This document shows positions 11,393 through 14,588 of a stretch of DNA of 14,593 nt, piece after piece (positions within the stretch are counted from its first letter, which is position 1; each line of letters starts with the position of its first letter). Below the pieces are notes generated by a model. It was given only the letters and a program-made list of their open reading frames with translations. It did no database searches and had not been told where the DNA came from. Source of the stretch: a virus; UHGV virus genome UHGV-1704081, one strand, 5' to 3'. A program made the translations under genes and the position numbers.

Positions 11393-13257
11393 TGGCTAAA
11401 GCATGGAAAGATGTTATCGCCTCTCCACAGTATCAGGCGTTAACTGAAGAACAGAAAGCACAGGCTCAAGCGCAATATTTTGATGAGGTTGTTGCCCCTA
11501 AGGCTGGTGACAAATGGGCTGAAGCAAGAGATCAGTTTTATGCAGCATACCCTCCGCCTCAGCAGCAGAAAGAAGAACCATCATTGATGCAACAAGCTGG
11601 CGATTGGCTCACTGGTGGTCAAAGTGCAGGGCAAATTGCAGAACAGGCTGGTCGTGGTCTGGTAAACATACCATTTGACGTATTGCAGGGTGGCGCAAGT
11701 CTGATTAATGCAATCAGTCAGGGGCTTGGTGGCCCCAAGGTTTTGGACGATGTCTATCGTCCAGTAGATCGACCAACAGACCCTCATGCGCAAGCTGGAG
11801 AAACAATTGGCGGGTATTTAGTTCCAGGAGTTGGAACGGCAGGAAGCATGGCTATTGGATCACTGGCAGAGGCCGCAAATCAGAAAGGCGATTTCGCACA
11901 AAATGCAGCTAAAAATGCCGGAGTTAACCTTGCCGCTCAGGGGGTTCTTTCCGCAGCAGCAAAGGGAATAGGGCGTGGAATTACTGCTGTTCGTGGCGAA
12001 ATATCACCAGCAGATCAGCAATTGCTCAAGCGTGCCGCTGCGGCAGATGTACCAGTTATGACATCGGATGTAGTTCCTCCAAAAACAAAACTTGGCAATC
12101 AACTGCAGGGTTACTCAGAAGGAGTCATAGCTGGTACTGGACCAATGAGAGCCGCACAGCAGGATGCCAGAACCAAGCTTGTTAATCGCTTCACCGAAAA
12201 ATACGGCGACTACGATCCATCTGTAGTCGTTGATAGTCTAAAGTCAGGCGTTGCAAGGGAAAAATCGTTAGCCAAGTCAAAACTAAACAGCCTGTCAGGA
12301 AGAATGGTTGGAAAGCCAGTTGATACAAGTGGCGCCATAAGAGCTATCGACGGAGCAGTAAACGAACTTGGGAAACTTAAAGGTGTTTCTGACACCCAGA
12401 CCATTTCTGCGCTTAATGATTATAAGAATGCCATTCAGGAGATAACAAATGGAGATGATGCCTTTGAGTTACTTGATAAGCTGAGAACTCAGTTCCGCAT
12501 TGACGTAAAAGGCGATCGTACAGTTCTGCCATCAATGTCGCAAACAATGGTCGACAGGGTCTACAACTCGCTAACCAATAGCCTTAGTAAATCTATAGCG
12601 AAAGGACTTAGCCCAAAAGATGCTTCAGCATGGAGAGCGGGAAAAGCTGATTATGCAAAAATGGCAACACATGCAACTCAAACGCGCCTTAAAAACGTTC
12701 TAAACAAAGGAGATTTAACTCCCGAGGCTGTAAATACCATTGTGTATGGACAATATGGGTCAGATATAGCTCGATTGTACGGGAAACTCGATCAAAAAGG
12801 TAAAGACATGCTAAGGGCGGCATATATCAGCAAAATAGCTGACAAGGTAGGTGACAGCCCTCAGAAAATGATGACCGAGCTTGGCAAGCTGCAAAAACAA
12901 GCAAATGGTCAGGTGTTTAAAACTGTATTTGGTGGGAAGAACGGAAAAGAGATAGAGGGGATGTTATCTATTCTCGATGCTACCAAAAGAGCATCTGAGG
13001 CTAATGTTGTGACGAAGACTGGCATGACACTCGCGCCTTTGGTAAGGGTTATTGGTAACCTAAAAACCGGAGGCGCGCTATTGGCTGGGGAAACAGGGAT
13101 TGGCCTTATGTCGAGGGTTTATGAAAGCCCTATGGCTAGGAATGCGCTCTTACGTCTGGCAAACACTAAAGCTGGAACGCCAGCTTATGAAAGAGCGTTA
13201 AGCAAAGCTGCAAATGCCATCAGACCGCTGCTTGCCACTGAGGCAACACAGCAGTGA
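11392..13257 (+). CDS. Ejection protein, P22 gp16-like
   Basis: 621-aa ORF, close in size to P22 gp16 as I recall. Last gene of the ejection-protein trio. A/G/K-rich composition typical of this family. Confidence 0.8.
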   Translation: MAKAWKDVIASPQYQALTEEQKAQAQAQYFDEVVAPKAGDKWAEARDQFYAAYPPPQQQKEEPSLMQQAGDWLTGGQSAGQIAEQAGRGLVNIPFDVLQGGASLINAISQGLGGPKVLDDVYRPVDRPTDPHAQAGETIGGYLVPGVGTAGSMAIGSLAEAANQKGDFAQNAAKNAGVNLAAQGVLSAAAKGIGRGITAVRGEISPADQQLLKRAAAADVPVMTSDVVPPKTKLGNQLQGYSEGVIAGTGPMRAAQQDARTKLVNRFTEKYGDYDPSVVVDSLKSGVAREKSLAKSKLNSLSGRMVGKPVDTSGAIRAIDGAVNELGKLKGVSDTQTISALNDYKNAIQEITNGDDAFELLDKLRTQFRIDVKGDRTVLPSMSQTMVDRVYNSLTNSLSKSIAKGLSPKDASAWRAGKADYAKMATHATQTRLKNVLNKGDLTPEAVNTIVYGQYGSDIARLYGKLDQKGKDMLRAAYISKIADKVGDSPQKMMTELGKLQKQANGQVFKTVFGGKNGKEIEGMLSILDATKRASEANVVTKTGMTLAPLVRVIGNLKTGGALLAGETGIGLMSRVYESPMARNALLRLANTKAGTPAYERALSKAANAIRPLLATEATQQ

Positions 13258-13274
13258 CTAAATGCCATGGATGG

Positions 13275-13463
13275 TTATTTCCCTAGCACATGAAACAATG
13301 TTTGCTTTAATTCCACCCATACAATTATGACCACTATAGACAGACAAAAGAAACTGAATGCATTGGCATCACGATCGAAACCTTCTCCGGCACTAAATCC
13401 GTAAAAGGTCATAAAAAATATAAAAATTGCGCACTTTGCAACGTTTACAAATTTTTTCTTCAC
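13275..13463 (-). CDS. Small predicted two-helix membrane protein (62 aa from GTG; 87 aa if the upstream ATG at 13538 is used)
   Basis: Minus-strand ORF convergent with gp16. Strong Shine-Dalgarno AGGAGG (complement of 13469-13474) with 5-nt spacer before in-frame GTG (complement of 13461-13463). Product MKKKFVNVAKCAIFIFFMTFYGFSAGEGFDRDANAFSFFCLSIVVIIVWVELKQTLFHVLGK: basic N-terminus, two hydrophobic segments, short acidic loop. AT-rich. Confidence 0.55.
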   Translation of the reverse strand: MKKKFVNVAKCAIFIFFMTFYGFSAGEGFDRDANAFSFFCLSIVVIIVWVELKQTLFHVLGK

Positions 13464-13527
13464 ACCAACCTCCTTAGTTTTGCGCAGGATACCAGATGAT
13501 AATGTGTAGTTGGAGTAGCGCGGTTGC

Positions 13528-13594
13528 AATGCAAGCATTTTGTTTTAGTTTTATGCTTGCTTGTATGTGTGTACAGTGTATATAATGCAAGCAT
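13528..13594. promoter_or_regulatory. Three copies of a GCAAGCAT core motif (two direct, one inverted) flanking the promoter; candidate operator sites
   Basis: AATGCAAGCAT at 13528-13538 and again at 13584-13594 (11/11 identical; the second overlaps the -10 box). The inverted copy ATGCTTGC at 13553-13560 overlaps the candidate -35. Spacing is GCAAGCAT-N14-ATGCTTGC-N26-GCAAGCAT. Confidence 0.4.
13557..13586 (+). promoter_or_regulatory. Candidate sigma70 promoter for the downstream accessory ORF
   Basis: Perfect -10 TATAAT at 13581-13586. Candidate -35 TTGCTT at 13557-13562 (18-bp spacer), or TTGTAT at 13561-13566 (14-bp spacer). Lies about 34 nt upstream of the ATG at 13620, in an AT-rich intergenic region. 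Confidence 0.5.
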
Positions 13595-13619
13595 ACATCA
13601 CAACAAAGGTTCTTGCATT

Positions 13620-14588
13620 ATGACTGAAAAGAAAAGTGGCGAAGGGAAAGCTAAGGGCGGGATCGCTCGCGCAAAGTCGCTGACTAAAGAGCAGCGTTCT
13701 GAAATAGCAAAGAAAGCAGCTGCTGCAAGATGGAAAAGTAAGATTCTCAGGGCAACTCATCGTGGTAACTTTTTAGATGATTTTGGCATTGACGCTGAAT
13801 GTTATGTACTGGATGACGAGTCGAAAACTGTCGTTGTTACGAAAACTGGATTATCTCAGTTGCTAGGGATTGGTGAACATGCCAGGGATTTAGATCAACT
13901 GCTTGGCGCTCAGTATATGAGCAAATACCGAGATCTAGAATTGCAGCGAAAAATGGAAAATCCCTATAAATTTCAACTTACTTCGAAGTCTAAAACCGTT
14001 CATCAAGCGTTAGGTTATGACATTACAGCAATTGTTGATATTGGTAGGGCACTAATAGAAGCCAAAGATAATGACGATCTACCACAATCACGGTTAAAGG
14101 CAGCCGCCGCAGCACAGAGACTTATTAATGCCTCCGCTAAGGCGGGAATTAAGGGGGTTGCGTATGCGCTTGCTGGTTATCGCCCAGAAGTTCAGGCTGT
14201 CATTGACGAGTTCAAAGCGTTTGTTCGTGAAGAGGCTCGTCAATATGAAAAGGAATTTCCAGATGAGCTATACGAGGAGTGGTATCGACTGTACGGCCTG
14301 AATAGGCCAGAGAAAGGACGGCCTATTCGTTTTGGGCAGCTAACCAACATGCAGATATACACCCCGCTAGCAAAGAGTAAAGGTAAAATCCTTGAACAGA
14401 TTCGAGCCAGCCGAGACGAGAACGGAAAACAATCTGATAAGTTGCATCTGTTCCTTTCTGAAATTGGTGTCAAGGCTTTGCGTCAGCATATCGGTAAGCT
14501 TCTTGGTGTCGCAGCGATGAGTGAGACAAGAGAAGAATACGAAAAAGGAATAGAAAAGGTTTTCGGAAGAATGAAACCAGAAATCTAA
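13620..14588 (+). CDS. Hypothetical protein (~322 aa) with a highly basic N-terminal segment; function unknown, candidate accessory/defence gene
   Basis: Long ORF. ATG at 13620 preceded by AAAGG (13605-13609) and the TATAAT promoter. N-terminus MTEKKSGEGKAKGGIARAKSLTKEQRSEIAKKAAAARWKSK is K/R/A-rich, suggesting nucleic-acid binding. No Walker A, HNH or other catalytic motif seen by eye. The ORF track's TTG 13524 version adds 32 hydrophobic residues. Stop TAA at 14586-14588 is followed 2 nt later by ATG at 14591. Confidence 0.8.
   Translation: MTEKKSGEGKAKGGIARAKSLTKEQRSEIAKKAAAARWKSKILRATHRGNFLDDFGIDAECYVLDDESKTVVVTKTGLSQLLGIGEHARDLDQLLGAQYMSKYRDLELQRKMENPYKFQLTSKSKTVHQALGYDITAIVDIGRALIEAKDNDDLPQSRLKAAAAAQRLINASAKAGIKGVAYALAGYRPEVQAVIDEFKAFVREEARQYEKEFPDELYEEWYRLYGLNRPEKGRPIRFGQLTNMQIYTPLAKSKGKILEQIRASRDENGKQSDKLHLFLSEIGVKALRQHIGKLLGVAAMSETREEYEKGIEKVFGRMKPEI

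Follow-up and report, generated by a model that had tools for sequence, protein, structure and literature searches.

Near one end of the viral genome UHGV-1704081, analysed here as a single stretch of 14,593 nucleotides (the window), a 156-bp interval between two divergently oriented open reading frames (ORFs) contains several copies of a short symmetric sequence, and the question raised by this locus is whether these copies are operators and, if so, which protein would bind them. The plus-strand gene encodes a protein of the P63C-domain family, and the minus-strand ORF encodes a small hydrophobic protein. The original prediction had taken the repeats for repressor operators within a divergent promoter region, through which the P63C gene would be controlled either by its own product or by a prophage repressor. 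The comparative analysis described below makes it probable that the P63C gene is negatively autoregulated by its own product, with operators of sequence ATGCAAGCAT placed over its own promoter, a reading that is drawn from sequence comparison.

Two copies of the 11-mer AATGCAAGCAT, at positions 13528-13538 and 13584-13594, and an inverted copy of its core ATGCTTGC at 13553-13560 were found exactly where they had been reported. The actual repeat unit is a 10-bp near-palindrome, ATGCAAGCAT, which can be written as ATGC-AA-GCAT, and besides the three copies that had been claimed a fourth, degenerate one was detected next to the start codon, making four in all (Table 1). The exact 11-mer has no further copies in the window, and with up to two mismatches allowed it has 10 matches in the whole window, as against 9.0 expected; five of the 10 fall within the 92 bp from 13528 to 13619. 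A repeat search returned the whole array as a 33-nt imperfect palindrome (13528-13560 / 13587-13619). The transcription start is predicted near 13593 from the position of the -10 hexamer, and relative to this start the sites are located at about -65, -35, -10/+1, and +20. The earlier statement that the repeats sit on the -35 and -10 elements thus applies to sites 2 and 3, respectively, and does not apply to site 1, which lies approximately 20 bp upstream of the -35. The -35 sequence, TTGCTT, is separated from TATAAT by an 18-nt spacer and matches the consensus at only three of six positions, which explains why a consensus scan reported no promoter. Site 4 of the window carries a private G-to-T change at position 13611, an otherwise invariant core position, and reads GTTCTTGCAT where all near-identical relatives have GTGCTTGCAT. 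The surrounding 76 nt (13575-13650) had an exact match in none of 62 Escherichia coli complete-genome records, and a one-position difference was seen in all matches listed; the T at 13611 may be a natural weak-operator (operator-down) allele or a sequencing error.

Table 1. Features of the P63C locus in the window, and loci of other genomes that carry the small-ORF features discussed in the text
Feature	Position or locus	Strand	Remarks
Operator site 1, ATGCAAGCAT	13529..13538	+	Exact copy; upstream of the -35; has an equivalent in cassettes of other loci
Operator site 2, ATGCTTGCTT	13553..13562	-	Inverted copy; holds the -35-like TTGCTT (13557-13562)
-10 hexamer, TATAAT	13581..13586	+	Perfect; overlaps the beginning of site 3 by two bases
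Operator site 3, ATGCAAGCAT	13585..13594	+	Overlaps the last bases of the -10 and includes the predicted transcription start
Shine-Dalgarno (SD)-like AAAGG	13605..13609	+	Located between sites 3 and 4
Operator site 4, GTTCTTGCAT	13609..13618	-	Degenerate copy; ends 2 nt before the ATG (13620)
P63C-domain protein gene, 322 aa	13620..14588	+	PF10546 (E = 7e-14); phrog_2384 (E = 2e-104)
N-terminal motif KAKGGIARAKSLTKEQRSEIAKKAAAARW	13647..13733 (codons 10-38)	+	Proposed operator-binding module
Hydrophobic ORF, 62 aa	13275..13463	-	GTG start; SD AAGGAGG; phrog_21338 (E = 4e-45); position of sieA in P22
Loci with a convergent small ORF	L144, L163, L164, L165, L168, L177, L191, L192		
Loci with a convergent small ORF (continued)	L210, L222, L224, L244, L248, L106, L217		
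Loci with the GGTAGTG element	L128 (~2440), L129 (~2410), L376, L378, L380; small ORFs of L144, L168, L192, L210, L222		

A first indication that this array is a conserved entity came from blastn comparison, in which the segment 13552-13634 was 78% identical to DNA upstream of orf23 of Salmonella phage ST104, a gene that encodes a protein of approximately 30% identity and that is located elsewhere in the phage genome, between cI and gene 24. The same four sites precede the homologous gene in Burkholderia phage Bups phi1 (48% protein identity), and TTTGCAAGCATG is found at the start codon in Gordonia phage Barco. A search of related prophages for the motif had been proposed with the original prediction, and when it was performed with a pattern of 21 specified bases that describes sites 1 to 3 and leaves site 4 free, the array was recovered from at least 120 IMG/VR contigs and from dozens of bacterial genomes; it is because of this recurrence that the array cannot be attributed to chance. 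Approximately 115 true viral matches were listed, and in 104 of these a P63C homologue (20-100% identity) directly follows the fourth site, which the pattern did not require. The other viral matches were mostly copies of this cassette that were truncated by the end of a contig or had one of the sites in reverse orientation, and about five were unrelated. After removal of duplicates 75 unique viral cassettes remained, from loci with a GC content of 0.39 to 0.73, in which conserved 10-mers are separated by spacers that bear no relation to one another. The same pattern, applied to a collection of one genome per species, yielded 49 further loci with a P63C gene, spanning alpha-, beta-, gamma-, and delta-proteobacteria, Acidobacteria, and metagenome-assembled genomes of Dehalococcoidia (Chloroflexi) and Pseudonocardiaceae. 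Of the bacterial pattern matches about 45 of 120 are, by estimate, expected by chance, and matches in coding sequences or repeat elements were set aside; L027, L036, L153, L155, L190, and L211 are examples of the chance or unrelated matches to the three-site pattern that were rejected because they lie in coding regions or in repeats resembling repetitive extragenic palindromic (REP) or clustered regularly interspaced short palindromic repeat (CRISPR) sequences. In total, the four-site layout was found upstream of P63C homologues (24-100% identity) at more than 150 loci. Moreover, in a sample collected by protein similarity without reference to the motif, and comprising homologues of at least 61% identity only, two or more sites were present in all 57 distinct upstream regions and four or more in 52 of the 57, as compared to 0-1 sites in background 200-nt windows.

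The layout of the cassettes was examined in 103 non-redundant representatives, with spacing, promoter hexamers, and SD sequences counted in 78 cassettes. The information content amounts to about 2 bits at each core position, is confined to exactly 10 bp, and drops to about 0 bits in the flanks and spacers; the unrequired site 4 still reaches 1.2-1.9 bits per core position. Core-to-core spacing is 20-25 bp between sites 1 and 2, 31-32 bp between sites 2 and 3, and 21-25 bp between sites 3 and 4. The 31-32-bp spacing, which was found in 62 of the 78 cassettes, separates the TTGCAt of site 2 by 17-18 nt from a TAnnnT hexamer that reaches into site 3, a constraint that supports the -35 assignment. 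Such a hexamer, with the first T of the site-3 core as its last base, is present in 47 cassettes, and its second-position A and sixth-position T are both present in 56 of the 78. A minority class has a spacing between sites 2 and 3 that is approximately 10 bp, or about one helical turn, shorter, and carries TTGACA just upstream of site 2. An SD-like tetramer occurs between sites 3 and 4 in 63 of 78 cassettes, and the last core overlaps the start codon or ends at most 1 nt from it in 79 of the 103. The array always blankets the predicted promoter and the translation start of the P63C gene. This combination of conserved sites, free spacers, and constant placement at a -10-like hexamer and a start codon is what would be expected of operators over a promoter, as had originally been proposed.

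The match of the P63C protein itself to PF10546 (residues 199-286) scores 52.7 bits against a gathering cut-off of 26.1, and 1682 homologues were collected at E ≤ 1e-5. The suggestion that its basic N-terminal segment could be the binding partner gained weight from comparison of the homologues. This segment contains a motif with the consensus KGGxARAxxLxxExRxEIAxKAAxARW, in which G13, G14, A16, R17, R26, A30, R37, and W38 are invariant. The first 40 residues of the window protein are 68% identical to those of ST104 orf23, as compared to about 27% for the remainder, and in the three clades of protein bodies that were compared the N-terminal motif and the upstream sites are present or absent together. 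The proteins of Midgardsormr38, SI8, Javan515, L341, and L347 have neither motif nor sites and are encoded directly after a repressor gene; Pkon1, the body of which is 81% identical to that of SI8, has the motif as well as GCAAGCAT sites, and the same holds for L343 and L346; Lodos, Barco, and L373 combine the motif with GCAAGCA-type sites. The type of repeat also differs among motif variants. Proteins of the 933W type, with a diverged second helix (RKESSRKAVAAKK), are preceded by ACGTGCA/TGCACGT repeats that are conserved down to 52% identity, L371 (second helix ESARNAA) by GTACGCA-type repeats, and vB_E192a (second helix ERAKKAV) by two copies of GTTAGATAT.

Two further observations concern the surroundings of these homologues. 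In the 933W type (the L0095 family of the nin region of Shiga toxin phages) a perfect 24-bp palindrome, ACGTGCATATTTAAATATGCACGT, is accompanied by a third ACGTGCA (L006 2880-2930; also L370-L372). P63C homologues are often located directly downstream of the prophage repressor gene, in the 'rex' position (L336, L339, L340, and L005), and those that lack the N-terminal motif start 35-160 nt after the repressor gene, which suggests that motif-less homologues are co-transcribed with the repressor in lysogens.

Taken together, the region 13529-13618 can be regarded as a putative self-contained promoter-operator cassette of the P63C gene, in which a sigma-70-type promoter (-35 TTGCTT, -10 TATAAT, start near 13593) would be blanketed by four sites. 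The P63C protein would bind these four sites on double-stranded DNA, most probably through the two-helix KGG-ARA...RW motif at its N-terminus and probably as one dimer per site, and the bound protein would shut off its own transcription. In this manner autoregulation would hold an accessory protein that is expressed from the prophage at a low and buffered level. The choice of the gene product as the binding factor follows from the distribution of the cassette, which is found in the immI-like region here, between cI and gene 24 in ST104, and at other positions in Burkholderia, Pseudomonas, and Paracoccus phages; since hosts and genomic contexts differ, the binding factor must travel with the cassette.

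Several considerations weigh against this interpretation. The promoter is a reading by consensus and was rejected by the scan, and the weak -35 within site 2 is compatible with activation as well. The pattern by which most of the cassette loci were found itself imposed sites 1 to 3. If the promoter recombines as one block with the adjacent first 40 codons, this physical linkage could by itself produce the co-occurrence of motif and operator. The two helices predicted for the N-terminal motif are of low confidence (predicted local distance difference test scores of 52-65), and in Pfam, NCBIfam, and PDB-sequence searches with the motif and with the whole protein only P63C itself was found, such that a DNA-binding role of the motif is without structural support from a relative in these collections. 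Finally, GCAAGCAT sites are absent up to a distance of 2.5 kb from genes for small proteins that end in almost the same motif.

The most serious of the competing explanations, which is nevertheless considered unlikely, is that the sites are bound by another protein, such as CI, a neighbouring ribbon-helix-helix protein of the Mnt/Arc type, a host factor, or, in other genomes, a small convergent partner protein that shares the motif. Arrays of short pseudo-palindromes are typical of ribbon-helix-helix operators, a Mnt-like gene lies convergently 16 nt after the P63C gene in E. coli relatives, Pkon1 has Arc-like genes next door, and in 15 of 60 diverse P63C clusters the P63C gene has a tail-to-tail neighbour that encodes a small protein with the same motif at its end. 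However, the array is kept where no Mnt/Arc, CI, or small partner gene is adjacent, for example in ST104, Bups phi1, and Lodos. The complete genome of the related phage vB_EcoP-611R6 contains four copies of the 8-mer TGCAAGCA, three of them in the cassette and one, at chance level, in recT; the 8-mer is absent from the cI/cro and mnt/arc promoter regions, which those repressors must occupy, and no other cluster of sites was found in that genome. The Arc and Mnt operators of P22 (Oarc and Omnt; L004 3468-3514) show no similarity to ATGCAAGCAT. These results argue against CI, Mnt, and Arc, and in favour of the gene's own product, so that of the two modes of control originally suggested autoregulation is supported by comparison and control by a prophage repressor is unlikely. 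With respect to a host factor, we know of no host regulator that is common to Enterobacteria, Burkholderia, Acidobacteria, and Gordonia. It is also conceivable, with a probability that we judge to be low, that the P63C protein mainly acts as an activator or as a dose-dependent switch, with sites 1 and 2 aiding the polymerase and sites 3 and 4 repressing at higher concentration. The -35 is weak (TTGCTT or TTGCAT, three of six matches) and lies inside site 2 next to a strong -10, and the -35 position is where class II activators and lambda CII act. Nevertheless, sites 3 and 4 occupy a classical repressing position, over the -10, the +1, and the initially transcribed region, and the four sites are equally conserved, with no sign of graded affinities.

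The inverted copies might, alternatively, function in RNA, in that a read-through transcript would fold and bury the start codon and the transcript from the internal promoter, in which the 5' arms are missing, would be translated, as in IS10, or, as a variant, in that the protein would bind the hairpins as a translational repressor; jointly these options appear improbable, to about the same degree as activation. Positions 13582-13591 and 13612-13621 form a perfect 10-bp inverted repeat, with the AT of the ATG in its 3' arm and the SD in its loop. RNA of the region 13520-13640 folds at -36.5 kcal/mol (z = -2.97) and RNA that begins at the predicted start shows no structure (z = +1.5), such that read-through from the late operon could be translationally silenced. 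ST104 keeps the stem, with an A-T to T-A swap, and the AA/TT alternation of the site centres follows the pattern ATAT in the majority of cassettes (63 of 103). Against these points, the stems are kept by sequence and without covariation, the core pairs being invariant and flanking positions pairing in 15-19 of 37 cases, and the hairpin between sites 3 and 4, evaluated as a candidate by covariation, was dismissed because it found no support outside the invariant core. The ATG-proximal site is direct rather than inverted in about 20% of the non-redundant cassettes, and others have a flipped site 1. Sites 1 and 2 precede the predicted start and often follow immediately on a terminator, and the variant with a spacing between sites 2 and 3 that is about 10 bp shorter fits DNA helical geometry. 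An Rfam scan of 13200-13800 returned noise only, with nothing near a gathering score. RNA pairing possibly has a minor, additional role next to the proposed self-repression.

The KGG motif is not restricted to P63C proteins, as a family of proteins of approximately 80 residues ends in a motif that is almost identical to the one at the P63C N-terminus. In the 15 clusters mentioned above, an ORF of 73-94 codons on the opposite strand is convergent with the P63C gene, with a gap of mostly -59 to +12 nt, and ends in KGG-ARA...EIAKKAAAARW, the motif that opens the P63C protein. The motif is thereby common to two partner proteins, and this arrangement suggests that the P63C gene and the small convergent ORF are a two-gene system with a shared motif. 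Sharing of the P63C operator by the small genes was considered and discarded, as no GCAAGC cores were found nearby, and ATGCT..AGCAT repeats before the start codon of the small gene, found at two of six loci only, were likewise discarded. The small genes have an upstream element of their own, GGTAGTG(T/G)(C/G)TCAGTTTGA, which is located some 40-80 nt before the start and recurs across unrelated lineages; an alternative sigma factor may use this element as its promoter. Small KGG genes at loci without P63C are still convergent and overlapping with a neighbour, at L128 2501-3546 with a gene for a Bro-N protein and at L132 2041-2730 with a 153-codon ORF. An ORF resembling IS1/IS1595 transposases (MNKLSLKQRAQILHLLVEGNSLRATARIADVS...) is found upstream of the cassette in 12 of 60 P63C clusters, and also in L142, L128, and L129, which hints that the module also rides on elements like insertion sequences in environmental genomes. 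A bolder extension of these findings, which we offer tentatively and consider somewhat less probable than its opposite, is that the approximately 30 residues of KGG-ARA...EIAxKAAxARW constitute an unrecognised portable module for sequence-specific binding to DNA, reading the near-invariant ATGCAAGCAT across phyla; motif and four-site cassette would then be a plug-in unit of self-repression that has been placed on different P63C bodies, and at the quarter of diverse loci that have it the small partner would make it a two-component system, resembling toxin-antitoxin or defence systems, that shares one operator.

The window as a whole is the late region of a P22-like (Lederbergvirus) E. coli prophage and encodes the terminase, portal, scaffold, and coat proteins, gp4, gp10, the gp26 needle with a Sf6-type knob, gp14, and the ejection proteins gp7, gp20, and gp16. 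Gene 16 ends at 13257 and is followed by the slot that in P22 holds sieA and immI, the operator array being situated in the immI-like region; the window itself ends 5 nt after the stop codon of the P63C gene. The leader of the 62-aa ORF (13464-13494) is 97% identical to the sieA leader of P22. Homology to P22 is limited to this leader and does not cover the annotated P sieA, with a mosaic joint at about 13455-13461, at the 5' end of the ORF. As no sigma-70 promoter was detected for the minus-strand ORF at the thresholds of the scan, and the P22 homology stops at the leader, the divergent promoter that was part of the original prediction could not be established. The 62-aa ORF is also present, unannotated, in phages JEP4, phiv205-1, and UPF_BP1. 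A terminator-like hairpin on the minus strand (13169-13186), within the 3' end of gene 16 and about 90 nt past the stop codon of the 62-aa ORF, is a possible terminator of that ORF. In other E. coli strains the cassette and P63C gene adjoin sieA or other ORFs, and in relatives the Mnt-like gene downstream of the P63C gene is followed by arc, ant, and the tailspike gene. In P22, the interval from sieA to t-mnt (L004 2532-2890) contains an open plus-strand frame that starts with ATGAAAAAAGTTAAC, is unannotated in the P22-pbi record, and fills the slot that the P63C gene occupies here.

The wider relevance of these findings is related to the fact that P63C-domain proteins are common in prophages, at loci usual for exclusion or defence genes that are expressed in lysogens. 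The conserved operator and its candidate binder form a predicted protein-DNA pair that offers a direct experimental handle; the array is a simple sequence signature by which P63C cassettes can be found; and the tightly self-limited expression that is predicted would be typical of toxic effectors. Operators normally drift fast, and it is unusual for a 10-bp site to persist across phyla when the protein that it regulates drops to 25% identity; this suggests a recognition module that is compact and under strong constraint and that could be put to new use as a regulatory part. In the literature that was searched, the P63C domain is mentioned incidentally only and PF10546 is not mentioned, and the 10-mers match unrelated primers only. 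The operator and its extreme conservation appear to be undescribed, as do the candidate binding motif and the partner protein. The general mechanism, self-repression via operators that overlap the promoter, is already familiar.

Among known systems, the closest in location is immI of P22, with its Pant and Pmnt promoters and Arc and Mnt operators, which occupies the same neighbourhood between gene 16/sieA and the tailspike gene and likewise has short symmetric operators directly over the promoter hexamers of an accessory gene. The P22 operators, ATGATAGAAGCACTCTACTAT and AGGTCCACGGTGGACCT, are unrelated to ATGCAAGCAT, and there is one site per repressor in P22 as compared to four here. Moreover, P22 employs a separate ribbon-helix-helix repressor, whereas at the P63C locus the regulated protein is the proposed binder and no antisense RNA is evident. 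The possible sequestration of a start codon by an inverted repeat, only in transcripts that enter from upstream, is reminiscent of fold-back inhibition in IS10, but the repeat sequence itself is conserved across phyla here and its inverted orientation is not universal, which argues for recognition of DNA by a protein rather than for RNA pairing. With lambdoid morons the cassette shares an own promoter, which is often preceded by the terminator of the upstream gene, and its location at classic moron positions, beside the repressor gene or in immI by sieA; morons are, however, not usually described with a dedicated and deeply conserved operator array. In antitoxins of the AbiEi type, an N-terminal DNA-binding domain binds inverted repeats in the own promoter. 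The P63C system resembles these and other negatively autoregulated single-polypeptide regulators of defence, abortive infection, or toxin-antitoxin systems in the fusion of an N-terminal module, for which a DNA-binding role is proposed here, to an effector body, in the repeats over its own promoter, and in being mobile or prophage-borne. It differs from them in that the N-terminal motif matches no known DNA-binding family, in that the P63C body has no match to a defence family in PADLOC at E ≤ 0.01, and in the four-site array, which here reaches over the start codon.

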